In this document: one piece after another, positions 3,163 to 56,994 of the stretch | Layout of the letters: the number at the start of each line of letters is the position of its first letter | How positions within the stretch are numbered: the first letter of the stretch is position 1 | Origin: Patescibacteria group bacterium | GTDB lineage: Bacteria > Patescibacteriota > Patescibacteriia > Magasanikbacterales > GWA2-37-8 | Assembly: GCA_041649475.1 (NCBI GenBank) | Contig: JBAZNA010000001.1 | Coordinates: 197,022-261,021, forward strand | Length of the DNA stretch: 64,000 bases | Direction: 5' to 3' | Notes under the pieces: generated by a model | What the model was told of the DNA's origin: nothing | The model's input: the letters and a program-made list of their open reading frames with translations, nothing else | The model's database searches: none | Position numbers and translations under genes: made by a program

Positions 3163-4047
3163 TTACGCCATCCCTCTTAATTTTTTGATTCTGTCTTCAA
3201 TCGGCGGATGAGTGGAGAAAAGATTGGAAACTTTTTTACCGCTAAACGGGCTTGCCAGAAATAAATGGGCAGTGGCCTGATTGGCGTGTGCCAATGGTTG
3301 ATTTTCAGCCGCAATTTTTTCCAAAGCCCGAGCCAAACCTTCGGGATAGCGGGTGAGCAATGATCCGGAAGCATCAGCCAAATACTCTCGCCGGCGGGAA
3401 ATAGCCAATTTTATCAGTTCGGCAATAATTGGAGATAAGATCGCCAAGATAATTCCCACCACCATAAAGATAATGCCGAGATCTCCGCCTTCGCGGTTGT
3501 TGTTTCTTCTCGGCAGCCAACGGCTTCGTAAAAAAATATTTGATAAAATCGCAATTGCTCCCACCATCACCGCCACCAAAGTCATGAAGCGAATGTCATA
3601 GTTCTTAACGTGGGAAAGTTCATGAGCGATTACGCCTTCCAATTCTACGCTTTCTAATTTTTCAATCGCGCCGCGGGTGATGGCAATGGTGGCCATGTCC
3701 GGTTTGCGGCCCGTGGCAAAAGCGTTGATGGCAGGATCTTCCATTATGTATACCTTTGGCACCGGCAAACCGGCAGTGATGCATAAATTTTCAACCAGAT
3801 GATACACATATGGATTTTCATCATGTTCAATCGGGTGGGCGCCGTTTGTCCAAAGCGCAATTTTGTCGCCCTGGAAATATGAAATCGCCGTCATGCCCAG
3901 AGAAAAAATAATCGCAAAGAAAACACCGCCATAACTTCCGGAACCGGAGGCCTGATCAAACACAAACCCCAAAGCAATGATGACCACAATAAAAATCATC
4001 ATCAAAATTATGGATTTTCGTTTGTTGGAATCTATCTCGTTATACAT
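3163..4047 (-). CDS. htpX: zinc metalloprotease HtpX (M48 family)
   Basis: N-terminal transmembrane segments and the HELSH zinc-binding HExxH motif. The size and layout are typical of HtpX, and it sits directly downstream of lemA on the same strand. Confidence 0.85.
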   Translation of the reverse strand: MYNEIDSNKRKSIILMMIFIVVIIALGFVFDQASGSGSYGGVFFAIIFSLGMTAISYFQGDKIALWTNGAHPIEHDENPYVYHLVENLCITAGLPVPKVYIMEDPAINAFATGRKPDMATIAITRGAIEKLESVELEGVIAHELSHVKNYDIRFMTLVAVMVGAIAILSNIFLRSRWLPRRNNNREGGDLGIIFMVVGIILAILSPIIAELIKLAISRRREYLADASGSLLTRYPEGLARALEKIAAENQPLAHANQATAHLFLASPFSGKKVSNLFSTHPPIEDRIKKLRGMA

Positions 4048-6034: not shown

Positions 6035-7066
6035 ATGCAATCTAAACTGCAGAAATTAAAAACCGAAGCCCTGCTGGCGATAAAATCCGCAAAAGATAAA
6101 TTGGAAGTTGAGGCCTTGGAACAGAAATTATTCGGCCGCAAGGGCGGAGAGATGACGGATATCTTGAAAGGCATAAAAGATTTGAGCGAAGATGCAAAAA
6201 AAGAAATCGGGCAATTGGCCAATGAAGTGAAAAAAGAAATTGAAAACGCGCTGGCCGCAAAAAAACAAGAGGTTTTGTCAAAAAGTTTTGCCGGCGCCTT
6301 GGAAAAAGAGCGAGTGGATTTAACCCAGCCGGCTTTGCCGCATCAAGAACGCGGGCATCTTCATCCGGTGTCAGTAATTCAAAATCAGTTGGAGGATTTA
6401 TTTGCGTCAATGGGTTTTATGGTTTTAGACGGTTCGGAATTGGAAAGCGATTATTATAATTTTTCAGCGGTAAATATTCCGGAAGATCATCCGGCGCGCG
6501 ACATGCAGGATACTTTTTATATTAAAAACCATCCGGATTGGGTGATGCGAACCCACACTTCTTCAATGCAGGTGCGGGGAATGCAAAAATACGGCGCGCC
6601 GCTTCGGGCGATTATTCCGGGCAAGTGTTACCGGAATGAAGCCACCGATGTCAGGCATGAACACACCTTTTATCAAATGGAGGGGTATGTTGTTGATAAA
6701 AATATCAACTTCGGGCACATGAAAGCGGTTTTGGAAACCGTGGCCAAAAATTTGTACGGCGCGGAAACCCAGGTTCGGCTGCGGCCGAAGTTTTATCCGT
6801 TTGTGGAGCCGGGCGTCAACGGCGAAGTGACTTGTTTTTTGTGTCATGGCAACGGTTGCCGGTTGTGTAAAAACAGCGGCTGGCTGGAGATTTTTGGCGC
6901 CGGTATGATTCACCCCAATGTTTTAAAAGAAGCCAATATTGATTCGAAAATTTATTCCGGTTTTGCTTTTGGCTTTGGTCTCACCCGTTTGGTGATGCTT
7001 AAATACGGCATTGAAGACATCCGCCTGCTCCAAAGCGGGGAGATGAAATTTTTAGAACAATTTTAA
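6035..7066 (+). CDS. pheS: phenylalanine--tRNA ligase alpha subunit
   Basis: 343 aa with class II aminoacyl-tRNA synthetase core motifs (FPFVEPG, GAGMIHPNVL), located immediately upstream of pheT. Confidence 0.9.
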   Translation: MQSKLQKLKTEALLAIKSAKDKLEVEALEQKLFGRKGGEMTDILKGIKDLSEDAKKEIGQLANEVKKEIENALAAKKQEVLSKSFAGALEKERVDLTQPALPHQERGHLHPVSVIQNQLEDLFASMGFMVLDGSELESDYYNFSAVNIPEDHPARDMQDTFYIKNHPDWVMRTHTSSMQVRGMQKYGAPLRAIIPGKCYRNEATDVRHEHTFYQMEGYVVDKNINFGHMKAVLETVAKNLYGAETQVRLRPKFYPFVEPGVNGEVTCFLCHGNGCRLCKNSGWLEIFGAGMIHPNVLKEANIDSKIYSGFAFGFGLTRLVMLKYGIEDIRLLQSGEMKFLEQF

Positions 7067-7084
7067 CTTTCTTTCACACAGAAT

Positions 7085-9532
7085 ATGCTTATCTCTTTTA
7101 ACTGGTTAAAAAAATACGTCAAGTTACCTGATTCGGTTAGTGCCGAGGATGTAGCTGAAAAATTAAAGCAAAGCACGGTGGAAATTGAAAAAGTGGCCAG
7201 TCGCGCCAAGGATTTGGAAAATATTGTAGTTGGAAAAGTTGTGTCTTGCGATAAACATCCGAATGCCGATAAATTACAGGTTTGCAAAGTCAGCGTCGGC
7301 AATGAAGAAGTGGAAGTTGTTTGCGGAGGCAGTAATGTGAAAGAAGGAATGCTGGTGGCGCTGGCAAAAGTTGGCGCCAAAGTGCGCTGGCATGGAGCCG
7401 GGGAGTTGGTTGAGCTTGCGCCAACAGAGATTCGCGGCGTGAAATCATTCGGGATGATTTGCGCGTCAACTGAAATCGGTCTGGCTGACATGTTTCCTTT
7501 AAAAAGCGAAAAAGAAATTTTGGATTTGAGCGGCGTGAAAGCAAAGCCGGGCGCGCCTTTAAACAAAGCGTTGGGTTTGGATGATGCGGTTTTAGAAATT
7601 GATAATAAATCTTTGAGCAACCGGCCCGATCTGTGGGGGCATTACGGCCTGGCGCGTGAAGTGGCCGCGTTATATAAAAAGGATTTAAAAGCATACGAGG
7701 TCAAGAAAATAAAATCGGGCAAGGGCCTGAAAGTGAAAGTAGAAATTGAAGATAAAAAGTTGTGTCCGCGGTATATGGCCGTGGCCGTCTCGGGAATTAA
7801 GGTGAAAGAGTCCCCGGAGTGGCTAAAGAAAAGTTTGTTAGCAGTGGGCCTGCGACCAATAAACAACATCGTTGATATCACCAATTATGTGATGATGGAT
7901 TTGGGTCAGCCCATGCATGCGTTTGATGCCAAGGTTTTATCTGGCGATAAGAAACAGGCCGCGATTGTGGTGCGGCGTGCGAAAGACGGCGAAGAATTCG
8001 TTACTTTGGATGAACAGAAAAGAAAATTGGATTCGTCAATGCTTATGATTGCCAATCCGGAAAAATCGTTGGCCATTGCCGGCGTAATGGGCGGGATGGA
8101 AAGCGGAATTAATGCCGGTACTGATACTATAATTTTTGAATCCGCCAATTTTGATGCTTCATCAATAAGAAAAACGTCTACTAAATTGGGTTTGCGCACT
8201 GATTCATCGGCTCGTTTTGAAAAAAGTTTGGATCCGAATTTGTGCGTGTCGGCTTTAAGCAAAGCCGTCCAATTGGCGCTGGAATTAAATCCCGGCGCCG
8301 GTGTAGGCGGTAATATTGCCGATGAAGCAAATTTTCATCTTAGCACGGGTCCAATAGGATTTGGCCTGGAATATTTGAAGAAAATTGCCGGAGTGGAAAT
8401 TTCCAAAAAAGAAGCGGTAAGCATTTTAGAACGATTGGGTTTTGCGGTCACCGGTAAAGGCGATGAAATGAAAGTAAAAATTCCCAGCTGGCGCGCCACC
8501 AAAGACATCTCTCTTCCCGAGGACTTGGTTGAAGAAATTGTGCGTATTTATGGCTATGAAAATATATTGTCTGCGATGCCGACGTTTCCGATAAACCCGC
8601 CGGAAGAAAACAAAGTGCGTAAACTGGAAAGACAAATTAGGGATTTGCTGGTAAAAGAAATGTCATATACGGATATGTATAATTATTCTTTTGTCAGTCC
8701 GCAGATGATTGCCAAAATGAATGATGATGTTAAAAAATATATTGAACTTGATAATCCAATTTCGCAGGAACGGCCGTATGTGCGCCGGCATTTAATCACT
8801 AACCTGTTGGAAAATATTTTAAAAAATATTGATAATCATCCCACTTTGCGTTTATTTGAAATCGGTAAAACCTTTATAAGTGAAAAGCCGGGGCAAAGAA
8901 CAATGGCCAACAATGACGATCTGCTTCCGCGCCAGGACACCTGGCTGACAAGTGTGTTTGTGGAAAAGAAAAATGCGGCGCCGTTTTGGCAGGCACGCCG
9001 GGTAGTGGAAAATATTCTGGGCGATTTGGGGCAAAATTTTGAAGTGAAGGTGCCGAAAGAAATTTATCCGTGGCAGCATAAAGCGCGCGTGGCCAGAGTA
9101 ATGGTTGCCGGAGAAGATGTGGGTTCGGTTTATGAACTTAATCCGGCCGCGGGAGCCAACTTAGGTTTAGAGTGGAGCGTGGGCGTGGCGGCGTTAAACA
9201 TTGATAAGCTGGCAATGCTGCCTGTGTCTGACAAAAAATATAAACCACTGTCAGAATATCCGGCCATAGAACGGGATTTGGCGATTTTGGTGAAAAAAGA
9301 AGTTTCACACGGTGAAATTATTTCAGCCCTGGCGCACACTGATCCGATTTTAGCATCTGTGGATCTGTTTGACGTCTATGAAGGAGAGAACATCGGCGCC
9401 GGTTACAAAAGCATGGCTTATCATTTTGTCTATCGCGACCTTAAGCGAACCCTTACGGCCGGAGAGGTTGAAAAAGTGCACAGTAAAATTTTAAAAATTC
9501 TTCAGGAAAAATTTAAAGCGAGCGTGAGATAG
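7085..9532 (+). CDS. pheT: phenylalanine--tRNA ligase beta subunit
   Basis: 815 aa with an N-terminal tRNA-binding domain (MLISFNWLKKYV, CDKHPNADKLQVC), B3/B4 and B5 regions and a C-terminal FDVY anticodon-binding domain. Confidence 0.9.
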   Translation: MLISFNWLKKYVKLPDSVSAEDVAEKLKQSTVEIEKVASRAKDLENIVVGKVVSCDKHPNADKLQVCKVSVGNEEVEVVCGGSNVKEGMLVALAKVGAKVRWHGAGELVELAPTEIRGVKSFGMICASTEIGLADMFPLKSEKEILDLSGVKAKPGAPLNKALGLDDAVLEIDNKSLSNRPDLWGHYGLAREVAALYKKDLKAYEVKKIKSGKGLKVKVEIEDKKLCPRYMAVAVSGIKVKESPEWLKKSLLAVGLRPINNIVDITNYVMMDLGQPMHAFDAKVLSGDKKQAAIVVRRAKDGEEFVTLDEQKRKLDSSMLMIANPEKSLAIAGVMGGMESGINAGTDTIIFESANFDASSIRKTSTKLGLRTDSSARFEKSLDPNLCVSALSKAVQLALELNPGAGVGGNIADEANFHLSTGPIGFGLEYLKKIAGVEISKKEAVSILERLGFAVTGKGDEMKVKIPSWRATKDISLPEDLVEEIVRIYGYENILSAMPTFPINPPEENKVRKLERQIRDLLVKEMSYTDMYNYSFVSPQMIAKMNDDVKKYIELDNPISQERPYVRRHLITNLLENILKNIDNHPTLRLFEIGKTFISEKPGQRTMANNDDLLPRQDTWLTSVFVEKKNAAPFWQARRVVENILGDLGQNFEVKVPKEIYPWQHKARVARVMVAGEDVGSVYELNPAAGANLGLEWSVGVAALNIDKLAMLPVSDKKYKPLSEYPAIERDLAILVKKEVSHGEIISALAHTDPILASVDLFDVYEGENIGAGYKSMAYHFVYRDLKRTLTAGEVEKVHSKILKILQEKFKASVR

Positions 9533-10033: not shown

Positions 10034-10046
10034 GTTGCCTCCTATC

Positions 10047-10075
10047 TTGACAAAAAAATATTTTTAGTGTATTCT
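10047..10075 (+). promoter_or_regulatory. sigma70-like promoter (TTGACA -17- TATTCT) driving GC-rich cassette A
   Basis: Consensus -35 TTGACA, a 17-nt AT-rich spacer and -10 tattct. A structured GC-rich leader with a strong GAAGGAG ribosome-binding site lies downstream. Confidence 0.5.
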
Positions 10076-10149
10076 TGGTGATTATTCCTTAGGTAAGGAA
10101 GCCCGGACCATTCCGGTTCGGGTATGATGATAGAGGAAGGAGAAAAAAG

Positions 10150-10497
10150 ATGGGAATGCGCGCGAAGGACTGGGAGGCGGCCCAGGCCGTTTTCTTGAAA
10201 GAGGCCGGTGCCGACCCTGACCCCGACGATTCGTGGACCGTAGTTCGGTCGCCGAGTTTGCAGGAGCTTCTGCTGGCAAAGGAGCAGGAGTTCCCGGTTG
10301 AGCTCGAGCTCTCCGACGGCCGCAAGATGACCGTGTTCGTCGAGGATATCAAGGACCCCGACGCGCACGGCGAAGTGGAGGTGTACGTAATGTACGTCGC
10401 CAACGGCAACCGGCGCCGGCGGTACCTGCACTTCACCCCCGACGTCTACGAGCCCAGGGTCAACGTCTACCCCGAGCCCAAGGAATCCGTGGGCTGA
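10150..10497 (+). CDS. hypothetical protein, compositionally foreign GC-rich cassette A (115 aa)
   Basis: ATG preceded by a GAAGGAGAAAAAAG ribosome-binding site. Codon third positions are strongly G/C-biased, and the first 60 nt count about 63% GC against about 28-40% in neighbouring genes. Its own promoter is upstream and an intrinsic terminator is downstream. No recognisable domain. Confidence 0.6.
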   Translation: MGMRAKDWEAAQAVFLKEAGADPDPDDSWTVVRSPSLQELLLAKEQEFPVELELSDGRKMTVFVEDIKDPDAHGEVEVYVMYVANGNRRRRYLHFTPDVYEPRVNVYPEPKESVG

Positions 10498-10520
10498 CCC
10501 CACTTCCTCCCTCGTCTCAC

Positions 10521-10549
10521 GCCCAAGCATCTGCTTGGGCCTTTTTTTG
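10521..10549 (+). terminator. intrinsic terminator gcccaagcatctgcttgggc + T7
   Basis: 9-bp GC stem followed by ctttttttg. Confidence 0.7.
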
Positions 10550-10587
10550 TTGATTTTGTTATGGCTTTCGGGTAAGATACGAGCACT

Positions 10588-13500
10588 ATGCCCGACTTTG
10601 TTCACCTCCATGTCCACAGCCATTATTCGCTTTTAGATGGCCTGCCAAAAATTGACGAGCTAGTTAAGCATGCCAAAAGTTTGGGCATGACTGCCCTTGC
10701 CCTCACCGATCATGGTAATATGTATGGCGCCATTGAGTTTTATGAGCGGTGTCAGAAAGAGGGAATAAAACCGATCATCGGCATGGAGGCATACTTGGCT
10801 CCGGGCAGTCGTTTTGATAAAAATCAAAATGACAAGTATTATCATCTGGTGTTGTTGGCTTTGGATTATACCGGTTATAGAAATTTGATGAAGCTGGCTT
10901 CGCTGGCTCATCTGGAGGGGTTCTATTACAAACCCCGTGTTGATAAAGAACTTCTAAAACAATATCATGAAGGTTTGGTTGCTTCATCTGCCTGTTTTGG
11001 CGGCGAGATTCCTTGGATTTTGCGCAAAGAAGATAATTTTGAGAAAGCCAAAAAAGTGGCGTTGGAATACGAAGAAATTTTTGGCAAAGGAAATTTTTAT
11101 CTGGAACTGCAGGACTTGCCGGGTTTGGAAGGTCAGATGGAGATGAATACAAAATTAATTAAGCTTTCCCAAGATACTGGCGTCCCGCTTATTGTCACCC
11201 GTGACGTGCATTATTTGAAACCGGAGGACGCCGAAGCCCAGGATATTTTAACCTGCATCCGCGACGGCCGGACTTTGGATGAACCCAATCGCCAGACCAT
11301 GAATGCGGTTGATTGTTCAATGGCTAGCGTCAAAGAAATCGCCGGCCGCTTTAAACATATTCCTGAAGCATTGGAGAACACGGTTAAGATTGCCGAAAGA
11401 GCGAATCTGGTTTTAGAACTTAATAAATGGCATTTTCCGCCTCTTGAGCTTCCGGTCGGGCAGACCGCCGACAGTTATTTGCGCGAGCAGGTTTATGAAA
11501 GATTGCCGAAGCTGTTGCAGATAACCGAGGAGGTGAAAAAAAGAGTTGACTATGAGTTGGAAATTATCGCCAAAAAAGGTTATTCTCCGTATTTTTTAAC
11601 AGTTGCCGATTATGTGCAGTATGCGCGCGACCACGGCATTGCCGAAACGACCAGGGGCTCGGCTGCTGGTTCAATCGTTTCTTACGCTATAGGAATCGTC
11701 ACTGTTAATCCGCTGTATTTCAAATTGCCGTTTGAAAGATTTTTAAATCCATTCCGTCCCAGCCCGCCGGATATTGACGCGGACTTCGCCGACGACCGCC
11801 GCGACGACATGATTGCTTATGTCACGCAAAAATATGGTGCGGACAAAGTGGCGCAGATTATTACCTTCGGAACGATGATGGCGCGCGGAGCGGTGCGCGA
11901 TGTGGGCCGAGCGCTGGGCTATACCTATTCTTTTTGCGATCAGATTTCAAAAATGATTCCTTTTGGCGCGCAGGGTTTTCACATGAATATTGCCAAAGCC
12001 ATGGAGCTGGAGCCGGATTTAAAAAAATTATACGATCAAAATCCGCAAGCCCACCGTTTATTGGATTTGGCGCAAAAAGTGGAGGGCTGCGCCCGACACA
12101 CTTCCATACACGCGGCCGGAGTGGTGATTTCACCGACGCCGCTTACGGATTTTACTCCGGTTCAGCGCGAAACCGGCGGTGAGAGAATTACCACTCAATA
12201 TGAAATGCACGCGGTGGAGGCGGCTGGAGTTTTGAAAATGGACTTTTTGGGGATCCGCAATTTATCTATTTTGGGTCATGCCGTGGAAATTATAGAAAAA
12301 ACAACCGGCCAGAAAATTGATATCTACAAATTGCCCTGGGATGACAAAAAAACCTATGAAATGCTGGCGCGCGGTGAAACTATCGGTGTGTTCCAGCTTT
12401 CCGGATCTGGCATGACCAGATATTTGAAAGAATTAAAGCCGGCCAGCATCTTTGATATTATGGCCATGGTGGCACTGTTTCGCCCCGGGCCAATGGAATC
12501 AATTCCCGAATATATAAAAAGAAAAAATCATCCGGAACTGATTGAATATCTTGATCCGCGCATGGAAAATTATCTTGATCAGTCCCTGGGCTTGATTGTT
12601 TATCAGGACGACGTTTTGCTTACGGCTATAAATTTGGCCGGATACAATTGGGAGGAAGCGGATAAATTCAGAAAAGCGATGGGCAAGAAAATTCCGGAAG
12701 AAATGGCCAAGCAGAAAGAGAAATTTTTTAAGGGCTGCCGTGAATTCGGGCATTTGTCCGAAGCAAAAATCAACACCCTGTGGGAACGCATTGAGCCGTT
12801 TGCCGCTTATGGTTTTAACAAGGCCCATGCCTGCAGTTATGGAGTTGTGGCCTATCAGACCGCCTATCTGAAAGCTAATTTTCCGGTGCAGTATATGACC
12901 GCGATTTTGATTGCGGAAAGCGGCGACATTGATAAAGTGCCGGAAATTATTCATGAGTGCGAGAGAATCGGCATAAAGGTCTTACCGCCCGATGTTAATG
13001 AAAGTTTTAAAAATTTCGCCATGATTTCGCCGGAAGACGGATCCGAGCCGCACATTAGGTTCGGTTTAAACGGCATAAAAAATCTGGGCGAGCATATTGC
13101 CGAAGTGATTTACCGCGAACGCAAAGAACATGGCACGTATAAAGACCTGCAGGATTTGCTCACGCGTGTAAATGATAAGGATTTAAACAAAAAGTCCCTG
13201 GAAAGTTTGGCTAAATGTGGCGCGCTTGATTGTTTTGGCCATGACCGGGGATTGCTTTTGGCCAACACGGACAACCTTTTGGGTTTTGTCAGGCAGATGC
13301 ATGAGAAAACCCAATCAAACCAGAATTCGCTTTTTTCAGGCACAACGATTGATTTGTCCGCCAAAGTTCAGCTTAATCCGGCGCCCCTGGCCGATGAAGC
13401 CGACAAGCTGATTTGGGAAAAAGAATTGCTGGGACTCTTCGTCACTTCCCATCCATTTAAGTATTTTGAAAAAATTATGAACGGCGTGCTGACACCGATT

Positions 13501-14055
13501 AAGGACTTGCCCAATCAGCCGCGCAACAGCCGGGTGGTGGTGGGCGGATTTATTGATTCCACCAAGAAAAAAATTACCAGAAGCGGCAAGGCGATGATGT
13601 TCGCCAAAATTCAGGATCTAAGCGGTGGGTTGGAACTTTTGATTTTCCCGCGCACCTTTGAAACCACCAAAGATGTTTGGCAAGAAGGAAAACCGGTTTG
13701 CGTGGTGGGCAAGACATCAGAAGAAGAAGGGGATGACAAACTGTTTGTGGACCGGGCGTATATTTTAACCAAAGAAAACGCGGCTACGCTGGCCATGCAA
13801 ATGAATATCAATCAGGGTGCGCCGTCTTTGCGCCAGTATGCGCCGAATTTTGTCAGTCCGGAAGAAGAGGGCTTTGAAGTTGTGGTCAGCCCGGCCAAGA
13901 TAAAAACCGAATCAGATAATATTAAAAAAATTCTAGGGAGGTATCCGGGCGATAAGGTGGTGTATATAAAAGTGGGGAATAAAAAAATAAAAAGCGGCTA
14001 CCGGGTGGACGGCTGCACAGAGTTGAAAGAAGAACTTAAACAATTTTCCAATTAG
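10588..14055 (+). CDS. dnaE: DNA polymerase III alpha subunit
   Basis: 1155 aa with an N-terminal PHP domain (HLHVHSHYSLLDG) and the polymerase core. The length and motifs are typical of DnaE. Confidence 0.95.
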   Translation: MPDFVHLHVHSHYSLLDGLPKIDELVKHAKSLGMTALALTDHGNMYGAIEFYERCQKEGIKPIIGMEAYLAPGSRFDKNQNDKYYHLVLLALDYTGYRNLMKLASLAHLEGFYYKPRVDKELLKQYHEGLVASSACFGGEIPWILRKEDNFEKAKKVALEYEEIFGKGNFYLELQDLPGLEGQMEMNTKLIKLSQDTGVPLIVTRDVHYLKPEDAEAQDILTCIRDGRTLDEPNRQTMNAVDCSMASVKEIAGRFKHIPEALENTVKIAERANLVLELNKWHFPPLELPVGQTADSYLREQVYERLPKLLQITEEVKKRVDYELEIIAKKGYSPYFLTVADYVQYARDHGIAETTRGSAAGSIVSYAIGIVTVNPLYFKLPFERFLNPFRPSPPDIDADFADDRRDDMIAYVTQKYGADKVAQIITFGTMMARGAVRDVGRALGYTYSFCDQISKMIPFGAQGFHMNIAKAMELEPDLKKLYDQNPQAHRLLDLAQKVEGCARHTSIHAAGVVISPTPLTDFTPVQRETGGERITTQYEMHAVEAAGVLKMDFLGIRNLSILGHAVEIIEKTTGQKIDIYKLPWDDKKTYEMLARGETIGVFQLSGSGMTRYLKELKPASIFDIMAMVALFRPGPMESIPEYIKRKNHPELIEYLDPRMENYLDQSLGLIVYQDDVLLTAINLAGYNWEEADKFRKAMGKKIPEEMAKQKEKFFKGCREFGHLSEAKINTLWERIEPFAAYGFNKAHACSYGVVAYQTAYLKANFPVQYMTAILIAESGDIDKVPEIIHECERIGIKVLPPDVNESFKNFAMISPEDGSEPHIRFGLNGIKNLGEHIAEVIYRERKEHGTYKDLQDLLTRVNDKDLNKKSLESLAKCGALDCFGHDRGLLLANTDNLLGFVRQMHEKTQSNQNSLFSGTTIDLSAKVQLNPAPLADEADKLIWEKELLGLFVTSHPFKYFEKIMNGVLTPIKDLPNQPRNSRVVVGGFIDSTKKKITRSGKAMMFAKIQDLSGGLELLIFPRTFETTKDVWQEGKPVCVVGKTSEEEGDDKLFVDRAYILTKENAATLAMQMNINQGAPSLRQYAPNFVSPEEEGFEVVVSPAKIKTESDNIKKILGRYPGDKVVYIKVGNKKIKSGYRVDGCTELKEELKQFSN

Positions 14056-15034
14056 GGTCGGCCTTAAGGTTCCGCCAATTTGTAAAATCTTCTTTAAGGG
14101 TATGATAATATCCGGCCACGGCAATCATGGCCGCGTTGTCCATGCAGTATTTTAAGTCCGGATATTTTATGTTGCTGCCGGAAAGTGCATCGGCGAAGGT
14201 TTCCCGCAGTTTTAAATTTGCGCTCACGCCGCCGCCAACCACGATTGTCTTCGGCCGGAATTCTTGCACCGCTTTGACGGTTTTAGAAACCAAAACATCA
14301 ACAATGGCCTGTTCCAAACTGGCGCAAAAATCTTCCAGTGTAATTTTTTTATTGATTTTATGATCTCTTAACCAATAAAGAGCCGAGGTTTTCAGTCCGG
14401 CAAAACTAAAATTATAATTATCATCATTTATCATCGGCCGCGGAAATTTTATCGCCTGCGGATTTCCGTTTTTTCCCAGTTTAGAAATTTGCGGACCGCC
14501 CGGATAGGGGAGATCAACCAGCTTGGCCACCTTATCAAAACATTCTCCGGCTGCGTCGTCACGGGTCGCGCCCAGTAGTTTATATTGCCTGGGTTTTTTT
14601 ATTAAAATTAATTCGGTATGGCCGCCGCTCACCACCAAACACAAAGCTGGAAATTCTATCTTGGAGTCGGCCGCGATCTCCGTAGAATAAATATGGCCTT
14701 CAATATGATTTACTGCCACCACCGGAATTTTTAAAGCGTACGATAAAGTTCTGGCCGCTTCCACGCCTACCAATAATCCGGTAATCAGCCCGGGTCCGGC
14801 CGTGACCGCAATCGCATCCGGCTGGGGCTGGTTTTCCAAAATGAGTTCAATCAGCGGCGTAATTTTTTCCGCATGCGCCCGGCCGGCGATTTCCGGCACC
14901 ACCCCGCCGTATTTTTTGTGAATGTCAATTTGCGAAGCGGTTTTTTCCGATACCACAACGCAACCTTGGCTTGAACAATTGAGCAAGGCCACCGAAGTAT
15001 CGTCACAGGAACTTTCTATACCAAGAATAAGCAT
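14036..15034 (-). CDS. tsaD: tRNA N6-adenosine threonylcarbamoyltransferase TsaD
   Basis: Kae1/TsaD family motifs (MLILGIESSCDDTSVAL, HIEGHI). The true start is placed at the MLILGIE methionine (15034). The ORF-track extension to 15151 runs into the downstream hairpin of cassette B. Its 3' end overlaps the dnaE 3' end by 20 nt. Confidence 0.9.
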   Translation of the reverse strand: MLILGIESSCDDTSVALLNCSSQGCVVVSEKTASQIDIHKKYGGVVPEIAGRAHAEKITPLIELILENQPQPDAIAVTAGPGLITGLLVGVEAARTLSYALKIPVVAVNHIEGHIYSTEIAADSKIEFPALCLVVSGGHTELILIKKPRQYKLLGATRDDAAGECFDKVAKLVDLPYPGGPQISKLGKNGNPQAIKFPRPMINDDNYNFSFAGLKTSALYWLRDHKINKKITLEDFCASLEQAIVDVLVSKTVKAVQEFRPKTIVVGGGVSANLKLRETFADALSGSNIKYPDLKYCMDNAAMIAVAGYYHTLKEDFTNWRNLKADPNWKIV

Positions 15035-15117
15035 ATTTTTCGCAATACCGAATTTCCTATTTAGAAACTCGGTATTACGGAGGAAGACGTGTGTCTTCCT
15101 CGACTCCTTATGTCTCC

Positions 15118-15564
15118 TTATGGCCAGTTGAGTTCCGCCGGCATAGGCCAATCACTGGCGTCGAAACTCACGAATCCCGGCGTCCATTTGAACTTGGACG
15201 CTTCTCCCGGACCAGAAGTGCCCGTGAGCTCGTGAATTTTTTTAGAACTGAGCACCTTGAGCGGCGACATCTCTTTCGGCTCCGGGCTATCGATAGTGGC
15301 CTGGAGAGAATAACCAATCCCTTTCGTGGGATTGTAGAGGAGAAGTTGCGTGGCGACTTTTGCCCGTTTGTGCTCAAGGCAGTCCCACACCATCTTCAAG
15401 AGCGGCTTCTCCACTACGACCACAGGTTCATTATCCTCTGCAGTCAGAGCTGGGAATACACCCATCAGTCCGTGTTCGATCAGCAGTAGGTAACCGTACC
15501 GAAGCTGCCATCCGCTCAGATCCTTTTCGAAGATGCTTCCCAGCGCCGGTCCTTGTTTGCTCAT
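15118..15564 (-). CDS. hypothetical protein, GC-rich cassette B (148 aa)
   Basis: Start chosen at MSKQGPALG because it is preceded by TTGGAGGAAACC-ATG (GGAGG ribosome-binding site). The coding sequence is GC-rich, unlike the host. It lies 33 nt downstream of the 3' end of tRNA-Met on the same strand and is followed by a GC hairpin. No recognisable domain. Confidence 0.55.
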   Translation of the reverse strand: MSKQGPALGSIFEKDLSGWQLRYGYLLLIEHGLMGVFPALTAEDNEPVVVVEKPLLKMVWDCLEHKRAKVATQLLLYNPTKGIGYSLQATIDSPEPKEMSPLKVLSSKKIHELTGTSGPGEASKFKWTPGFVSFDASDWPMPAELNWP

Positions 15565-15597
15565 GGTTTCCTCCAAGATCGAGATCGTTTTCCCGAG

Positions 15598-15671
15598 TGT
15601 CAGGGGAGGGAGTCGGACCCTCGACCTTAGGGTTATGAATCCTACGCTCTTACCAACTGAGCTACCCTGAC
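15598..15671 (-). tRNA. tRNA-Met (anticodon CAT; could also be a lysidine-modified tRNA-Ile2)
   Basis: The reverse complement folds as a cloverleaf. It has a 7-bp acceptor stem GTCAGGG/CCCTGAC, a D-arm GCTC-AGTTGGTAA-GAGC, an anticodon loop TTCATAA and a T-arm GAGGG-TCCGACT-CCCTC. There is no encoded CCA. G1-C72 is paired, so it is an elongator type. Confidence 0.75.
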
Positions 15672-15680
15672 ATTACCGAA

Positions 15681-15709
15681 AGTATACAAAAAAAAATGGC
15701 TTTAGTCAA
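15681..15709 (-). promoter_or_regulatory. sigma70-like promoter (TTGACT -17- TATACT) for tRNA-Met, with probable read-through into cassette B
   Basis: On the reverse strand: ttgact aaagccatttttttttg tatact, placed 7-10 nt before the tRNA 5' end. Confidence 0.55.
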
Positions 15710-15755
15710 TGTTGATTTTGGCTCTGTTCTGTGATAGTGTAAATTCAATAATTTT

Positions 15756-16796
15756 GTGATTATGTTGGAAAAAAGGCCTTATGAAAACTCAATACCGCTT
15801 GTCGGCCAGAATCGGCCGTCTTTTGCTGTGGAAAAAGTTGTTTTGGGGCAGAAAAGAGAAGCCAGGGAGTGTTTGAGACGCTGTTATGAATATCGCGACA
15901 GCAAGGGTGAATTTATCGCCCAGGGGTTGGTTGATGTAAATGCCAAACCGTTTCCTATTGAATCGCCGGATCCAAAGCTTGGATTTTACAACGGCTGGAA
16001 GCTGGAGTCCTTTATTATTATATCCAAAGAAGGAAAAAAGCGTGACGTATTAAAAAATTTAAACAAAGACGGCCAGCCGCTGCCGGATATAGTCATAGAC
16101 GATTTGGTGGAGCAATGTGGGTATATCAATGAACCAAAAAAGATGATAGTCGTGCCGCCGCTTAAGTCCGCCAAAGAAATTGAAGAGTTGGTGCATGAAA
16201 ATATGCACGCACAACAGGATAATAACAGCCATTTTAAACCACTTTTGGATTTGTATGAATGGTCGGAGATGGATGCCGGTGCGCTTGGCGAGGCGGAAGT
16301 GGAAAAACGGTTGCGTGAAATTTTGCGGGCGGTTTCCCATTTTGGCGAAGCAAAAAAGTTTGCCAAGCAATTGAAGGATGATGTTACTTTTTTTGAAGGC
16401 GCACTGCGGTCTGGCAAAGTGCCGGCCTCTGAAGTGCCAAAGATGATGGAAGAGCGGGTCAAACGGATACAAAAAATGTTTTCTTTACCAATGCAGATAT
16501 GTGAGATAGACGCCGAAGACGGGGGATTAAAAGGGTTGGAAGAAATTAAAGAAACCATAGGCGCTGATTTTTTGGCGCCGTTTATCTGGACACCGTCAGT
16601 GATTGCCGACACCCCGCACTCCAGAGCGCTGGACGCGGAAGAAGAAAACCGCTTTGAGGTGTTGGGAACATCTGATTTATACGAGCAAAAGAAAAAATTT
16701 GAGCACGGCAAGCCGTCAGTCACCAGTGTGCCGGCGATTGTCAAAATGTATCTTGAATCCGTGGGCGCTTTGCCGGCGCCATGGGAAAAAGGTTGA
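15756..16796 (+). CDS. hypothetical protein with HExxH motif (possible metallopeptidase-like)
   Basis: 346 aa in host-like composition. The only recognisable feature is the HENMH motif. Confidence 0.45.
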   Translation: MIMLEKRPYENSIPLVGQNRPSFAVEKVVLGQKREARECLRRCYEYRDSKGEFIAQGLVDVNAKPFPIESPDPKLGFYNGWKLESFIIISKEGKKRDVLKNLNKDGQPLPDIVIDDLVEQCGYINEPKKMIVVPPLKSAKEIEELVHENMHAQQDNNSHFKPLLDLYEWSEMDAGALGEAEVEKRLREILRAVSHFGEAKKFAKQLKDDVTFFEGALRSGKVPASEVPKMMEERVKRIQKMFSLPMQICEIDAEDGGLKGLEEIKETIGADFLAPFIWTPSVIADTPHSRALDAEEENRFEVLGTSDLYEQKKKFEHGKPSVTSVPAIVKMYLESVGALPAPWEKG

Positions 16797-16834
16797 CTTT
16801 CACCGAATTTTCTGGTATCATAATGCCGCACTAT

Positions 16835-16909
16835 GGCCCCATCGTCTAGTGGTTAGGACATCTCGCTTTCAATGAGAAAACACGGGTCCGATTCCCGTTG
16901 GGGCTACCA
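16835..16909 (+). tRNA. tRNA-Glu (anticodon TTC), CCA encoded
   Basis: Cloverleaf with acceptor GGCCCCA/TGGGGCT (G1-U72 wobble), D-arm GTCT-AGTGGTTAG-GGAC, anticodon loop CTTTCAA and T-arm CGGG-TCCGATT-CCCG, followed by ACCA. Confidence 0.85.
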
Positions 16910-16913
16910 ATAC

Positions 16914-16945
16914 AAAAGATTCCGGAGAACCGGAATCTTTTGTTA
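16914..16945. terminator. bidirectional intrinsic terminator gattccggagaaccggaatc flanked by A/T runs
   Basis: Perfect 8-bp stem with aaaa upstream and tttt downstream, lying between tRNA-Glu (+) and a convergent lipoprotein gene (-). Confidence 0.65.
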
Positions 16946-16955
16946 CGGGCGATGG

Positions 16956-17666
16956 CTAGAGGCCGAGCTTTGTTTTACAAGTTTTCGTAATAGCTTCTTT
17001 TGTCACACCGTATTTTGCCGCAAGCATATACCAATAATTATACAATCTTTGGGCATTTAACATGGCTACAAAAATATTATGGGAACGAACGTCGGCCGAT
17101 TGGGCCAGCTCCAGCATTTTTTGACACTCTCCGGTTGTCACTGTCCCGCCCAGATTAAACGGTTCATCAATTCTCATCATGACAAGTGCCTGACATTCCG
17201 CTCCTTCCACCAAGTTAATGCTAAGGGCCAGTTTGTCCTTTGTAACTACCATGATATTACCCGACAACGCTATCTTGTAACCGTGTTTTTTAAAGGCGTT
17301 TTCCAGTTTCGCTGTTGTCGGTTTGATTTTGACAACATACATTAGGGCATCTCCGACCTGATCGCCTTGTCCGATATTGGCGGAAAAAATTATTTCACCG
17401 CCGGCTTCGCTGTAAATTGATTTTAATTCTTTGGCCAACCCATTGGGAACCTCTGCTTCTGTGGCTGAATTGCACATATCCCCGGAATCTTTGTTATCAT
17501 CCGGCGGTTCCGTCGCAGTGCTGTTCGGAGACTGTTGGTTGACAGCCGGCGGGTAAATGTTCTCCTGCTTTGAATTTTGAGCGGGACTTTTATTAATACA
17601 TCCGGCGCCGGTTAAAATCAAAATACTGCCTAAAACAAACGCAATACCAAGAATTTTTTTGTTCAT
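16956..17666 (-). CDS. hypothetical lipoprotein
   Basis: Signal peptide with lipobox LTGAGC followed by a Pro/Gln-rich linker, 236 aa. Confidence 0.6.
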   Translation of the reverse strand: MNKKILGIAFVLGSILILTGAGCINKSPAQNSKQENIYPPAVNQQSPNSTATEPPDDNKDSGDMCNSATEAEVPNGLAKELKSIYSEAGGEIIFSANIGQGDQVGDALMYVVKIKPTTAKLENAFKKHGYKIALSGNIMVVTKDKLALSINLVEGAECQALVMMRIDEPFNLGGTVTTGECQKMLELAQSADVRSHNIFVAMLNAQRLYNYWYMLAAKYGVTKEAITKTCKTKLGL

Positions 17667-18073: not shown

Positions 18074-18400
18074 TCACAGGACCACTTCTTCGTAGTAGTC
18101 GGCCCGCTCGTGGCTAGCGTAGGGGCTTGATTTGGCATCCTTGAGCGCAGCTGCGGCGAACGGTTCGTCTATGGTGACCTCGGCAACGTTCTCGCACTTG
18201 GCGATCAACAGCTGACAACCATCACAGCCGAATCCGGTCACGGTTGCCAGAACCAGCGCCTCCTTGATCTTCGGTACCCGGCCCTCTTTGCGGATGGCTT
18301 CGGCCACATCGGCCGCGTTTTCTCCACCGCAGTCGGTCCAGAACTTGAAAACAACCTCATCACCCTTGCGCACACTAACGAGTCCGGTTTTTCCGTGCAT
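18074..18400 (-). CDS. hypothetical protein, GC-rich cassette C (108 aa, contains a GCDGC Cys pair)
   Basis: The ATG is preceded by a perfect AAGGAGG ribosome-binding site that overlaps the TAA stop of the upstream FAD oxidoreductase gene. The coding sequence is strongly GC-rich. It has no promoter of its own and ends at the terminator at 18021-18052. Confidence 0.55.
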   Translation of the reverse strand: MHGKTGLVSVRKGDEVVFKFWTDCGGENAADVAEAIRKEGRVPKIKEALVLATVTGFGCDGCQLLIAKCENVAEVTIDEPFAAAALKDAKSSPYASHERADYYEEVVL

Positions 18401-29580: not shown

Positions 29581-29922
29581 CTAGCCGGCGGCGGAAGCGG
29601 CGATGGGGGCGATCTTGGGCTGGATGTCGATCACGGGGATCGGCTCGGGCAGACCGTCGAAGCGCTGGCGGAGCCAGTCGATCTCGGGCTCCGAGGCCTC
29701 GCCCATGAAGATCTCGATGTAGAACGTCCCCCTGATGAGGCCCTCGTACTTCAGCTTGAAGCCGGGGATCTCGTCGTCGAAGTCGGCCTTGTGCGGCCTG
29801 TTGACGTACCTGTTGAAGTCGTTGAGCGAGCAGTACCTGACGCTGCCGTCCACGAACTGGATCCGTACGGCCCTTGTCTGCAAGGTCGTGTCCGGGAACG
29901 TCATCAGCTTCTGGATCGGCAT
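29581..29922 (-). CDS. hypothetical protein, GC-rich cassette E (113 aa from MPIQKL)
   Basis: Start chosen at the methionine preceded by AAGGAGagggag. The ORF-track ORF extends to 29994 with an Arg-rich low-complexity N-terminus that is probably untranslated leader. The coding sequence is GC-rich, and both its 5' leader (about 105 nt) and its 3' UTR (about 90 nt) are long and GC-rich. Confidence 0.5.
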   Translation of the reverse strand: MPIQKLMTFPDTTLQTRAVRIQFVDGSVRYCSLNDFNRYVNRPHKADFDDEIPGFKLKYEGLIRGTFYIEIFMGEASEPEIDWLRQRFDGLPEPIPVIDIQPKIAPIAASAAG

Positions 29923-30037
29923 CTCCCTCTCCTTGGGACTACGAGCTCGTGTGACCATCTTGTTATGCCTCCCTTGTTTCCGTGTTGGGCCCAATGCCCC
30001 TAAACTTGTTGGCCTTGTCCAGGCCGTGATGGGCTAA

Positions 30038-41855: not shown

Positions 41856-41884
41856 TTGACCAATTGTCTTTTTTATGCTAAAGT
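41856..41884 (+). promoter_or_regulatory. sigma70-like promoter TTGACC -17- TAAAGT for cassette F
   Basis: ttgacc aattgtcttttttatgc taaagt, followed by the leader hairpin cctgccagagaaaggcagg and an AAGGAGG ribosome-binding site. Confidence 0.5.
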
Positions 41885-41931
41885 ATGTGGTTCCTGCCAG
41901 AGAAAGGCAGGTCAGAAAGGAGGCCTCTCGG

Positions 41932-42312
41932 ATGACACGGGTCATGAGTTTGATGGCTTTCTACGCGACTTATCGTCTCTTAAAGGTCGCGTACCGTGCG
42001 ACCGAGAGACAGCTTAGGCTATTCTTCGTCCCCAAGCCGGGGTGCGAGGGGGCCTACGAGGTGGATGAGCAAATCTTCGCCAAGGTTCGGACGCTCATCG
42101 TCAATTCCAGGTCGTTTCAGACCGAAATCTACCCGCTGAACGCCAGTGACGTGGGGGAAGATTTCCGCCTTGGCGACCAGGATTTCACCGGCTCGGTGAT
42201 GGTCTGGCTGAAGGAAGTAGATCCTTTAGACGCACTGTTTACCGACAGAATCAAGGAGGTTGTGTTCGGAGAGGAGAAAGAGTATCGCTTTCAGTGCGGT
42301 TCCCGCAACTAG
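41932..42312 (+). CDS. hypothetical protein, GC-rich cassette F (126 aa from MTRVMSL)
   Basis: Start chosen at the methionine 8 nt after the AAGGAGG ribosome-binding site. The ORF-track start at 41875 lies inside the leader. The coding sequence is GC-rich, and a GC hairpin follows the stop codon. Confidence 0.55.
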   Translation: MTRVMSLMAFYATYRLLKVAYRATERQLRLFFVPKPGCEGAYEVDEQIFAKVRTLIVNSRSFQTEIYPLNASDVGEDFRLGDQDFTGSVMVWLKEVDPLDALFTDRIKEVVFGEEKEYRFQCGSRN

Positions 42313-44286: not shown

Positions 44287-45174
44287 CTAAAGTTTGATAC
44301 TTTTGAGAGATATTTTTAAATATAAATTTGAAGTCTTGTTTATTAAGAATTTTAATGTTTTGGGCAATACCCTGTCTAATAATGCAAGAAACGAGATAGT
44401 ATATATTAAGGTTAAAAAATTATTTTTAAGTATCGTGATTATAAAATTTGGTTTATAATCCATCTTCCAGAATATTATATAAAGAATAAAATGTAATATG
44501 CAGAAGAATGCTATTGGCCAGAATGGAGCTTTAAAACCAAGTAGATCCCATTTTTCTGGCTCACCGAATTGGTTATTACTTTCGGGCGAGTTATAAATTT
44601 TATCATTCTTCATAATCCTTGACCAAATATCAGTGAATTTGGTTCCAGATATTATAAGTAGTAACCATTGAAAGCAGTCAGATATAAATTTTATAATATC
44701 GGTTATAATTACCCTCCAAAATAATAATTTTAACCTAAGTTTAAAACCCTTTAGTGGCATGGTTGGTTTTGTATGAAGCAAGTATAGCTCGTCGAGTAAC
44801 ATATTTGCTGTTATTTCTTTATTTTTTTTATAAAATTTGTTCAAGATAACATCATAAAAATACTCATCATTTGAAGTAAAATCTATCGGGCCAGTAACTT
44901 TTTTTATTTTATCTTGGTTACTCAATGATATGTAAGATCCTTTGTCATCTTCTTTAAGTTTTCCATAGCTAACCCTTATGGATAGGGGTTTAATGTTGCC
45001 ATCCTTCAGTACATTTTCATTACTGATGTAAATATAGAATATTGATCCCCAATCGTCTGAACCCATTTTTCTAATTATACTAAAGCCAAATTTGCAATCT
45101 TTTAAAGGAGTGAGATTCAAAAATAATCCATTAGTTCCTATATTAAAATCTTTTATGAAATCTTGATTTTCCAT
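44287..45174 (-). CDS. hypothetical membrane protein encoded by an AT-rich insert between miaB and miaA
   Basis: 295 aa. The N-terminal half of about 190 aa is soluble and Lys/Asn/Ile-rich. The C-terminal part carries about three predicted transmembrane helices. GC is visibly lower than in the flanking genes. Confidence 0.5.
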   Translation of the reverse strand: MENQDFIKDFNIGTNGLFLNLTPLKDCKFGFSIIRKMGSDDWGSIFYIYISNENVLKDGNIKPLSIRVSYGKLKEDDKGSYISLSNQDKIKKVTGPIDFTSNDEYFYDVILNKFYKKNKEITANMLLDELYLLHTKPTMPLKGFKLRLKLLFWRVIITDIIKFISDCFQWLLLIISGTKFTDIWSRIMKNDKIYNSPESNNQFGEPEKWDLLGFKAPFWPIAFFCILHFILYIIFWKMDYKPNFIITILKNNFLTLIYTISFLALLDRVLPKTLKFLINKTSNLYLKISLKSIKL

Positions 45175-55838: not shown

Positions 55839-56504
55839 ATGGCGACCGCAAAACAGATTCCGTTTTTGATGGGAAGGTTGGTGGAGCATCAGTTTTACTT
55901 CTGTGCTTTGTCCACCGCAAGCGCCACGTGGGCGAGCCAAAACCCGAAAGACGCCATTGCCTTGTGCGTGGCGGCGATCGAGAATCGCCAAAAGGAGCGT
56001 CAGTCCGACCCGGCGCCTTCGCCACTCCTCACCTTGGTCGGTGCCGTCGTGATCTGGCTGGCCGTGAGGTTCGTTGCCAGTGAACACCTGGTGAAGAATA
56101 CCGAGAAGAACGCGCCGGTGAAGATTTCCTACATCTTCGATAAGGTCACCGTGTGGTTCCAGGGCAAGATCGAGGAGCGGGTCGAGGGCGAGATGGCTCT
56201 GTGCTGCCATACCCTGAACTCCGACTCGGACGATAACCTCATCATCAACCAGCTCGGCGGCGAGACCAAGGCCGAGACCGCCCTTGCCGAGGTCTTTGCC
56301 TGCTTGGAGAAGCAACCCAACGGCGAGGATGGTGCGCTACTCACTAACGGCCACGCGAACATCTTCTATGTTCGCAACACCGAAGGTGTGTTGTGCGTGA
56401 TCCAAGTGATCTGGCGCGGTGACGGTTGGACCTTCTACACCCGTTCGGTCGGTTCTCTGGACACATGTACCGAGGGCCGCCGGGTGTTCTCCCGCGCCGC
56501 ATAG
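55839..56504 (+). CDS. hypothetical protein, GC-rich cassette G (221 aa)
   Basis: GC-rich coding sequence with its own promoter and ribosome-binding site, followed by an intrinsic terminator. No recognisable domain. There is one hydrophobic segment (LLTLVGAVVIWLAV). Confidence 0.55.
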   Translation: MATAKQIPFLMGRLVEHQFYFCALSTASATWASQNPKDAIALCVAAIENRQKERQSDPAPSPLLTLVGAVVIWLAVRFVASEHLVKNTEKNAPVKISYIFDKVTVWFQGKIEERVEGEMALCCHTLNSDSDDNLIINQLGGETKAETALAEVFACLEKQPNGEDGALLTNGHANIFYVRNTEGVLCVIQVIWRGDGWTFYTRSVGSLDTCTEGRRVFSRAA

Positions 56505-56594: not shown

Positions 56595-56600
56595 TAACCC

Positions 56601-56994
56601 ATTCATAGCGGATGATCGAGCCGACTTAGTCGGCTAGGAAAGTCCGAACACCCAAGATGGCAGTGGGTAACGCCCACCGCTACGGTGGCAACGCCGTGGT
56701 TGGGAAAGTGGCACAGAGACAATTCTAACCCCGACAAGCTCGGGGTAAAAGGTGAAAAGTGTATGGGGGATTTGGTTCTCGAGACCAAAGCTACTATACT
56801 CGGCTGATAGCAATATCAGTTCGTGCTAAACCCTGCCTGGTGCAAGAGCAGCGTTTCGCGGCGCAAAACCGCGGTTCGAAAAGTTCGCTCGCTAGAACGC
56901 GTTAGCAATAACGCGTCCAGATAAATGATCGTCACCTCGCCCCATTTTTAAACAAAATGGTGCGGAGCACAAAATTCGGCTTATAGCTATGAAT
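56601..56994 (+). ncRNA. rnpB: RNase P RNA (bacterial type A)
   Basis: P1 pairing ttcatagc/gctatgaa. P2 gagccga...tcggctt and a P3 hairpin ccgacttagtcgg. P4 5' strand AGGAAAGTCCG and 3' strand ACAAAATTCGGCTTA. Conserved GGGTAACGCC, GTGGCACAGAGACAAT and GGTAAAAGGTGAAAAGTG blocks match the E. coli M1 RNA pattern. Confidence 0.8.

Follow-up and report, generated by a model that had tools for sequence, protein, structure and literature searches.

Why does a short GC-rich gene lie between a tRNA gene and tsaD, and which promoter serves it? The question is raised by a stretch of 64,000 nucleotides (nt), here called the window, from contig JBAZNA010000001.1 (positions 197,022 to 261,021) of the Patescibacteria group bacterium assembly GCA_041649475.1. 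In it an open reading frame (ORF) of 148 amino acids (aa), which an earlier note made from the letters alone called cassette B, separates a tRNA-Met(CAT) gene from tsaD, the gene for the tRNA t6A37 threonylcarbamoyltransferase. The earlier note had proposed that the ORF is joined to the 3′ end of the tRNA gene and transcribed from its promoter, and had considered a one-gene island. On balance, we favour the reading of the locus as a three-gene transcription unit consisting of tRNA-Met(CAT), the 148-aa accessory gene and tsaD. Co-transcription from the tRNA promoter, read-through of the hairpins that follow the ORF, RNA processing and the route of insertion are probable interpretations of the sequence. 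The features on which the argument turns, given as positions in the window and all on the minus strand, are as follows.

15681–15709, minus strand: promoter-like site of sigma-70 type, TTGACT (15709–15704), 17 nt, TATACT (15686–15681); 10/12 matches, a consensus match only
15597–15671, minus strand: tRNA-Met(CAT) as called by ARAGORN; Rfam RF00005 gives 15598–15671, 67 bits
15565–15596, minus strand: tRNA–ORF spacer, 32 nt, holding the Shine-Dalgarno (SD) sequence GGAGG (15574–15570) 5 nt ahead of the ATG at 15564
15118–15564, minus strand: 148-aa ORF (cassette B), 53.7% GC against 43.5% for the window; GC content at third codon positions (GC3) 0.62; family motifs DLxGW, HGLMGxFPA and PFxWAPGL
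15080–15101, minus strand: hairpin 1, gaggaagac-acac-gtcttcctc, with a 9-base-pair (bp) stem and a 4-nt loop, beginning 16 nt past the stop codon
15041–15079, minus strand: hairpin 2, 17-bp stem and 5-nt loop, ΔG −22.6 kcal/mol, z = −8.17, ending 6 nt ahead of the tsaD ATG
14036–15034, minus strand: tsaD, 332 aa, Pfam PF00814, E = 2e-92

Transcription signals between tRNA-Met and tsaD

The upstream half of the locus is much as the earlier note had described it. Both ARAGORN and Rfam place the tRNA within 1 nt of the claimed 15598–15671, and the claimed promoter, TTGACT-17-TATACT, is found with 10 of 12 consensus positions matched. It is the top minus-strand promoter match within 14500–17200, and its −10 box ends 9 nt ahead of the tRNA 5′ end. 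The GGAGG sequence and the 148-aa ORF, said to begin 33 nt past the tRNA, do so at 32–33 nt. The note had seen no terminator after the tRNA, and both the scan and folding of the spacer agree: the 32 nt contain no terminator-like or promoter-like site in the scan and fold no better than shuffled sequence (ΔG −5.8 kcal/mol, z = 0.0). The arrangement is that of a tRNA-mRNA unit, with both genes on the same strand, a 32-nt gap, the promoter upstream and neither a terminator nor a separate promoter between them.

The tRNA gene does not encode its CCA. As a G1-C72 pair is present, the tRNA is not a bacterial initiator and is read as either elongator Met or lysidine-modified Ile2. It carries A37 and reads an ANN codon, and would therefore be expected to be a TsaD substrate. 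Its T-loop is TCCGACT, with C in place of the nearly universal U55, as is also the case in the relative L039, and its anticodon stem carries an A31·C39 mismatch, as do those of all relatives examined.

The downstream half differs from the earlier description. The 83-nt spacer between ORF and tsaD contains two adjoining hairpins that together fold with −40.4 kcal/mol (z = −8.05, none of 200 shuffles as good). The GC hairpin that had been noted just before tsaD exists (hairpin 1), but the stronger 17-bp hairpin 2 stands between it and tsaD and had been missed. The hairpins are followed by CGUAAUAC and GCGAAAAAU, not by a U-run, and the scan calls no intrinsic terminator at either. tsaD has no SD and, in the same scan, no recognisable promoter of its own; the minus strand from 15680 to 15034 holds no further promoter-like site, and neither spacer a canonical terminator. 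Because the hairpins lack a U-run and tsaD lacks a recognisable promoter of its own, the likelier unit comprises tRNA-Met, the ORF and tsaD, and a unit that ends at the hairpin is probably not correct.

The tsaD start used here, the ATG at 15034 (MLILGIESSCDD), was set by alignment with 80 relatives. The public TsaD call (371 aa from a TTG at 15151, overlapping the ORF by 34 nt) was rejected as over-extended, since the relatives start at the position of ATG 15034. Just upstream, the motif TAAGGAG occurs twice at 15104–15120, the copies lying 10 nt apart and the first including the ORF stop codon; both are SD-like, with no start codon at a usable distance. Hairpin 2 might, speculatively, be a processing or stability element. 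A comparable hairpin abutting the tsaD ATG is absent in the relatives, except for a smaller one in L022, and we did not retain the idea that hairpin 2 substitutes for a tRNA end, which is speculative given that a strong hairpin at the tsaD ATG is not general among them.

The tRNA-tsaD junction in relatives

A TsaD search of metagenome contigs provided 80 loci with TsaD identities of 42–70%. The convergent dnaE gene beside tsaD is kept in about 30 of them, and we therefore take the locus (tRNA-Met, tsaD and, facing it, dnaE) to be orthologous across the relatives. In 11 of the 80 a same-strand tRNA ends 0–7 nt ahead of the tsaD ATG.

tRNA-Met(CAT) abutting tsaD, nine loci: L024, L027, L033, L036–L039, L041, L072
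tRNA-Trp abutting tsaD, one locus: L026
tRNA-Glu abutting tsaD, one locus: L064

At three of these the tsaD start comes after an encoded CCA. Of 14 relatives with tRNA-Met, 11 have a TTGACT-type promoter ahead of the tRNA, with a −10-like box at a similar distance (judged by eye). A gap of 0–7 nt leaves no room for a promoter or an SD, so tsaD must there be transcribed through the tRNA, and once the tRNA has been removed its mRNA would presumably be leaderless or near-leaderless. Relatives without the tRNA have full promoters, for example TTGAAA-17/18-TATAGT, with the −10 ending about 8 nt ahead of the ATG (L021, L028, L030, L040); a −10 box with at least 5/6 matches ends at −7 to −10 in 12 of 42 loci without a tRNA. 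This position of the −10 box suggests that tsaD is probably leaderless in these relatives too.

The earlier note had proposed comparing the tRNA-Met–tsaD spacing in related genomes, and the comparison is informative: 0–7 nt in nine contigs and 181 nt, without an ORF, in the closest relative (L022), against 562 nt in the window. No homologue of the ORF family lies within 4 kb of tsaD at any of the 80 loci, L022 included. What does occupy the junction elsewhere is varied.

Sense, YbaK-type editing domain: L045, L059
Sense, GIY-YIG nuclease: L050
Sense, two uncharacterised ORFs: L031, L032
Opposite strand, response regulator flanked by terminators: L044
tRNA-Trp: L026

Since the family is absent near tsaD at all 80 loci, and at a number of them the tRNA abuts tsaD or other genes fill the junction, the 148-aa gene would by parsimony be a lineage-specific insertion into an older tRNA-Met–tsaD unit. 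As a separate observation, the sequence cattgggattt occurs repeatedly, in the tRNA–tsaD spacer of L047 (3902–4000) and ahead of the L039 tRNA (upstream of 2015).

The 148-residue protein and its family

A word-indexed protein search with the ORF returned only a self match, and the family surfaced with an exhaustive HMMER search: phmmer against 1.84 billion representatives (clusters at 50% identity) identified 180 proteins at E ≤ 1e-3, of which 48 reach E ≤ 1e-10; almost all are 125–165 aa long and align from end to end. In a 50-sequence alignment the motifs DLxGW, HGLMGxFPA and PFxWAPGL stand out and G35, P38 and W127 are invariant; the window protein has all of H31, G32, M34, G35, F37, P38, A39, W127 and G130, and a profile search finds it to be the sole family copy in the window (151.9 bits). 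With 180 homologue clusters, conserved motifs and a confident AlphaFold2 model, the ORF is a genuine gene. Given these clusters and the tRNA–tsaD linkage kept in relatives, the arrangement is not a mere coincidence. The profile search yields 152 clusters, every named one a ‘hypothetical protein’ from Patescibacteria, Parcubacteria or Nomurabacteria, and the 13 loci in species-representative genomes, retrieved with a motif-restricted family alignment, come from Saccharibacteria, Parcubacteria, Nealson-, Kuenen-, Berkel- and Staskawiczbacteria. The family is spread across the Patescibacteria with a patchy distribution. Neither the window protein nor 50 relatives receive a family assignment from Pfam, PHROGs, PADLOC or NCBIfam.

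AlphaFold2 with the family alignment gives a model with a predicted local distance difference test score (pLDDT) of 90.8 and a predicted template modelling score (pTM) of 0.83. The model predicts a soluble α/β protein and has no structural neighbour in the PDB or BFVD, so that the fold is apparently new. A long form of about 255–270 aa has an extra N-terminal Cys-rich domain. This Cys/His-rich domain of about 110 aa (CxF...C...NGWCxEHE..KC..CG...C..C.H) is found in about one quarter of the family members (for example P0205, P0211 and L011:5653–6420); it has no Pfam match and is probably zinc-binding. From the patchy distribution, the single phage copy (below) and the fusion to a zinc-ribbon-like domain we would hazard, as a low-confidence guess, that the protein is a small cytoplasmic binding module belonging to an accessory, conflict-type gene pool. 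Csx15, a CARF-superfamily ring nuclease or cyclic tetra-adenylate (cA4) sponge (PMC13148439), is like the ORF family in being a small stand-alone protein that is sometimes orphan. We rejected identity with it: two long forms match only below threshold (E = 0.006–0.03, 15–17 bits against a 35-bit cut-off), follow-up in the PDB and the literature gave no support, and neither a score above the curated cut-off nor a CARF fold was found.

The family behaves as a self-contained and movable unit. Across 12 homologue loci with annotated or inspected genes (8 of them cellular with precomputed annotation; the phage locus L100 also belongs here) there is no conserved neighbourhood, and at none of 17 cellular loci does a tRNA adjoin the family gene. 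A strong SD precedes it at 13 of 17 loci elsewhere, and at nearly all of the 17 a hairpin with a T-run, a terminator, follows within about 40 nt of its 3′ end. Hairpin 1 lies at this position; the window copy has kept the family hairpin, and the T-run is absent. One viral copy was found, in L100 (IMGVR_UViG_3300017987_000003), a 195-kb phage contig with PHROG matches to a UvsX-like recombinase and a virion protein; here the gene begins 38 nt past the tRNA-Asn of a tRNA-Ile/tRNA-Asn array, behind an AGGAGG SD. At 6714–8426 the same contig has a transfer-messenger RNA (tmRNA) gene together with an array of tRNA genes (Met, Ile, Asn, Arg and one with a 4-nt anticodon call). We considered whether tRNA adjacency is a recurrent property of the family; it is seen again only in this phage and is not significant. 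Two further motif scans of IMG/VR viral contigs recovered no extra copies, and the family is mainly cellular.

Composition of the gene and route of insertion

The GC3 of the ORF is 0.617, compared with a median of 0.466 for 36 long host ORFs (standard deviation 0.047, maximum 0.557); it lies about 3.3 standard deviations, or 0.15, above them. Of the 49 gene starts in the window no more than 3 have a strong SD, the ORF being one. Because its GC3 is above that of the host and its start carries a strong SD, a signal nearly missing from this genome, the ORF looks imported. The earlier description of it as GC-rich holds in direction (53.7% against 43.5%), but at only about 10 points above the mean it is not extreme. 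Nor is the gene foreign to the phylum, given a Patescibacteria-wide family whose GC3 tracks that of the host (r = 0.85) with a systematic excess (above the host at 13 of 16 loci, mean excess 0.085, Wilcoxon p = 6e-4). The earlier note had held that finding the same ORF in host-like composition in related genomes would speak against its proposal; this is partly what we see, with the excess as a qualification. The genome is found again in ERZ27247363 and SRR8542065. Two loci, L001 and L002, are 100% identical to the window and hence uninformative on polymorphism or the ratio of non-synonymous to synonymous substitution rates (dN/dS).

Several starts in the window have, by eye, a −10-like box a few nt upstream, and leaderless mRNAs may for this reason be common in the organism.

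As the earlier note had stated, there is no integrase: the precomputed Pfam annotation of the called genes in 5118–25564 contains no integrase or recombinase domain. Its suggested search for a duplicated tRNA 3′ fragment, an attachment (att) site, was also negative in the window, the best local alignment scoring 17, which 144 of 500 shuffles equalled. Direct repeats around the insert are limited to chance-level ones of 10–16 nt. Among these, a 10-nt repeat, TTCGGTAATG / TTCGGTATTG, brackets tRNA and ORF; we discarded it because it does not exceed chance and because any role would conflict with ancestral tRNA–tsaD adjacency. An integron gene cassette finds no support either, as the hairpins lack the RYYYAAC / GTTRRRY cores of attC and there is no integrase nearby.

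Two relatives tell a different story. L022 has a 42-nt duplication (566–607 and 713–754, 41/42 identity) that can be lengthened to about 52 nt and comprises the tRNA-Met 3′ end and the hairpin following it, and L044 a 23-nt duplication of the tRNA-Met 3′ end (3180–3202 and 3312–3334, 22/23 identity); in each case none of 500 shuffles scores as well. Each pair of repeats encloses about 105–109 nt, which are GC-rich, contain no ORF and match nothing in Rfam. These duplications may be scars of integrative elements that were excised or deleted, or a miniature element, and in view of their significance the tRNA-Met 3′ end has been a target of recombination or integration in the clade. In the window itself, two signs of an island are present: the composition is atypical, and relatives lack the gene at this site. 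The proposed insertion beside the tRNA-Met 3′ end is thus upheld by the absence of the gene from orthologous loci and by its atypical GC3 and SD, but there is no sign of integrase-mediated entry here.

Model for the locus

We suggest the following history. In the ancestor of the clade tsaD would have lain immediately 3′ of tRNA-Met and relied on the tRNA promoter, and excision of the tRNA from the ancestral transcript would have left a leaderless or nearly leaderless tsaD mRNA. In this lineage a segment of about 556 nt (15041–15596) would then have entered the tRNA–tsaD junction in sense orientation, bringing its own SD, one ORF and a trailing hairpin. Transcripts would now start about 2–3 nt ahead of the tRNA, which would be released by RNase P (an RNase P RNA gene is identified by Rfam at 56600–56999) and a 3′ endonuclease; the remaining RNA would be translated from GGAGG-ATG, and polymerase would run on through both hairpins into tsaD, since neither is followed by a U-run. 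The retention in the window copy of a family hairpin that lacks the T-run fits selection to keep tsaD expressed. Extending the model to the whole clade, we propose more tentatively, and with clearly less confidence than in the unit itself, that tsaD is routinely expressed by ‘tRNA punctuation’ and that the tRNA–tsaD junction is a recurrent landing pad for promoterless single genes in sense orientation that use the tRNA promoter, the 148-aa gene being one such passenger.

Several observations weigh against the three-gene unit. The two hairpins, at −40.4 kcal/mol, could terminate or attenuate transcription without a U-run, the rules for terminators in this phylum being not established. A weak −10-like sequence, TATTGC, is found at −13 to −8 of tsaD, where a leaderless tsaD promoter would be expected, although it has neither the conserved final T nor a −35 box. 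There is a terminator-like site inside the ORF (15334–15315); as 8 such sites were found in the region where 3.2 are expected, it is probably due to chance. The relatives are distant, with TsaD at most 70% identical, so that it is parsimony that decides between gain and loss of the gene.

The first two of these points can be assembled into a different arrangement, in which tRNA-Met and the ORF form one unit ending at the hairpins and tsaD is transcribed, leaderless, from a weak promoter embedded in hairpin 2. The great stability of the hairpins directly past the ORF (z = −8) agrees with this, as do the family members elsewhere that end in their own terminator and the relatives without the tRNA, whose tsaD promoters have a −10 ending about 8 nt ahead of the ATG, just where TATTGC sits in the window. 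We nevertheless regard two units as unlikely: both hairpins lack a following U-run, TATTGC is without the conserved T6, a −35 and an extended −10, the scan found no promoter-like site there, and the nine relatives in which tRNA-Met abuts tsaD clearly have no tsaD promoter of their own. It is also rather unlikely, to a similar degree, that the gene is the last cargo of a tyrosine-recombinase element that targeted the tRNA-Met 3′ end and has since lost its integrase and other cargo, its att repeat having decayed. The significant 3′-end duplications at the same tRNA in L022 and L044 would suit such a remnant, and so would the host-atypical composition and SD and the family copy 38 nt past a tRNA array in a phage of about 195 kb. 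The sequence GTCGAGG...CCTCC, shared by hairpin 1 and the tRNA T-arm, was also considered, but this likeness amounts to a single 7-mer with the complement that a hairpin arm forces, and is not significant. The window has no att repeat (a score of 17, equalled by 144 of 500 shuffles), the annotation of the surrounding 20 kb contains neither an integrase nor a recombinase domain, and no gene lies between the tRNA-derived repeats of the relatives.

Two further possibilities concern the gene itself. An ancestral presence of the gene at the junction, with losses among the sampled relatives, is conceivable where these are so distant (TsaD 42–70% identical) that several losses could have occurred, and the junction is clearly labile. 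Such a history is very improbable, since the family occurs near tsaD at 0 of 80 loci, tRNA-Met abuts tsaD at nine loci and six further junction states have unrelated content, GC3 and SD are atypical for the genome, and more than 20 other loci show no conserved neighbourhood for the family. Finally, GC-rich DNA in AT-rich genomes often encodes structured RNA and an antisense ORF of 132 aa is also present, so the 148-aa ORF could in principle be a spurious frame in a non-coding segment. This is effectively refuted by 180 full-length homologue clusters with conserved motifs, by GC contents of 0.58/0.41/0.62 at the three codon positions, which is a coding pattern, by the confident AlphaFold2 model and by the absence of any Rfam match to the ORF or the spacers at gathering or even relaxed thresholds. 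We therefore retain the three-gene unit as the preferred description of the locus.

Other features of the window

tRNA-Glu is the divergent neighbour of tRNA-Met. The tRNA-Glu/tRNA-Met pairing is found again in relatives, and in L023 the two tRNA genes are only about 120 nt apart. In the window an ORF of 346 aa, common only to the closest relative L022 (76% identity over 126 aa), stands between them, which we take to be a probable second insertion beside these two tRNAs.

15756–16796, plus strand: 346-aa ORF with a weak match to DUF6782 (metallopeptidase-like), between the divergent tRNA-Met and tRNA-Glu genes
16793–16909, plus strand: tRNA-Glu(TTC) at 16835–16909 with its promoter-like site, TTGACT-17-TATCAT (extended TG)

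Five other GC-rich ORFs or regions (54–62% GC) occur in the window, with GC3 of up to 0.90 (29581–29994) and 0.78 (55839–56504).

10042–10623, minus strand: GC-rich ORF or region
18074–18400, minus strand: GC-rich ORF with a strong AAGGAGG SD, beginning 11 nt past a FAD_binding_4 gene
29581–29994, minus strand: GC-rich ORF or region
41875–42312, plus strand: GC-rich ORF or region
55839–56504, plus strand: GC-rich ORF or region

None of the five is related to another or, in protein or DNA, to the 148-aa ORF, none has a Pfam or Rfam match, and ‘cassette’ is a compositional label and not a family. The ORF at 18074–18400 accounts for another of the three strong SDs in the window. A 295-aa ORF at 44287–45174 (minus strand) is, with 27.9% GC, a composition outlier on the AT side.

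Implications and comparison with known systems

If our model is correct, it shows how SD-poor and very small genomes of the candidate phyla radiation (CPR) can express an essential tRNA-modification gene that has neither promoter nor leader to itself, by joining it to a tRNA that is a probable substrate of its product. Single accessory genes would be tolerated at the junction and may be drawn to it, gaining the strong transcription that the tRNA promoter provides, a cheap route by which a reduced genome could express newly acquired genes. The locus also points to a phylum-wide family that has no annotation; its at least 180 clusters at 50% identity, very sharply conserved motifs and apparently novel fold make it a worthwhile subject for structural and functional work. 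We consider this uncharacterised Patescibacteria family, together with the tRNA–tsaD abutment that implies a leaderless tsaD and the recurrent use of the junction by single genes, to be the most interesting by-products of the analysis. No known principle is overturned, as textbooks already describe tRNA-mRNA operons as well as insertion sites linked to tRNA genes; the locus is a variation on a known arrangement and not a new kind of element.

In the tRNA punctuation of mitochondria, excision of a tRNA defines the 5′ end of the next mRNA. The tsaD of the relatives resembles this in that tRNA excision would set the mRNA 5′ end and make it leaderless or near-leaderless; the differences are that this concerns a bacterial chromosome and a single junction, not a genome-wide system, and that in the window the tRNA is 562 nt from tsaD. 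The 3′ ends of tRNA genes are classic integration sites, and with tRNA-targeted islands the window shares an insert at a tRNA 3′ end that is atypical in composition and absent from the site in relatives, two of which (L022 and L044) have att-like duplications. Unlike such islands, it has no integrase, no att repeat and one gene only.

Closer parallels are found among bacterial operons. In the enterobacterial tufB operon (thrU-tyrU-glyT-thrT-tufB), the tRNAs come first and share one promoter with the protein gene (PMC6134099). In the window a leading tRNA and protein-coding sequence would likewise share one promoter, but there is one tRNA in place of four, and the tsaD of the relatives lies 0–7 nt past the tRNA, which implies a leaderless mRNA, whereas tufB has a conventional leader. 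In the Escherichia coli metY-rimP-nusA-infB operon, RNase III, cutting at hairpins that separate tRNA and mRNA, releases the tRNA from the transcript (PMC6511841). Here too a CAU-anticodon tRNA would be promoter-proximal in a polycistronic unit with translation-related genes downstream; in the window, unlike in the metY operon, the tRNA is a non-initiator (G1-C72), tsaD is distal with an unrelated accessory gene between, and no P2-like internal promoter is visible. Taken together, the window lacks two defining features of an island, integrase and att repeat, and has the architecture of a tRNA-mRNA operon.

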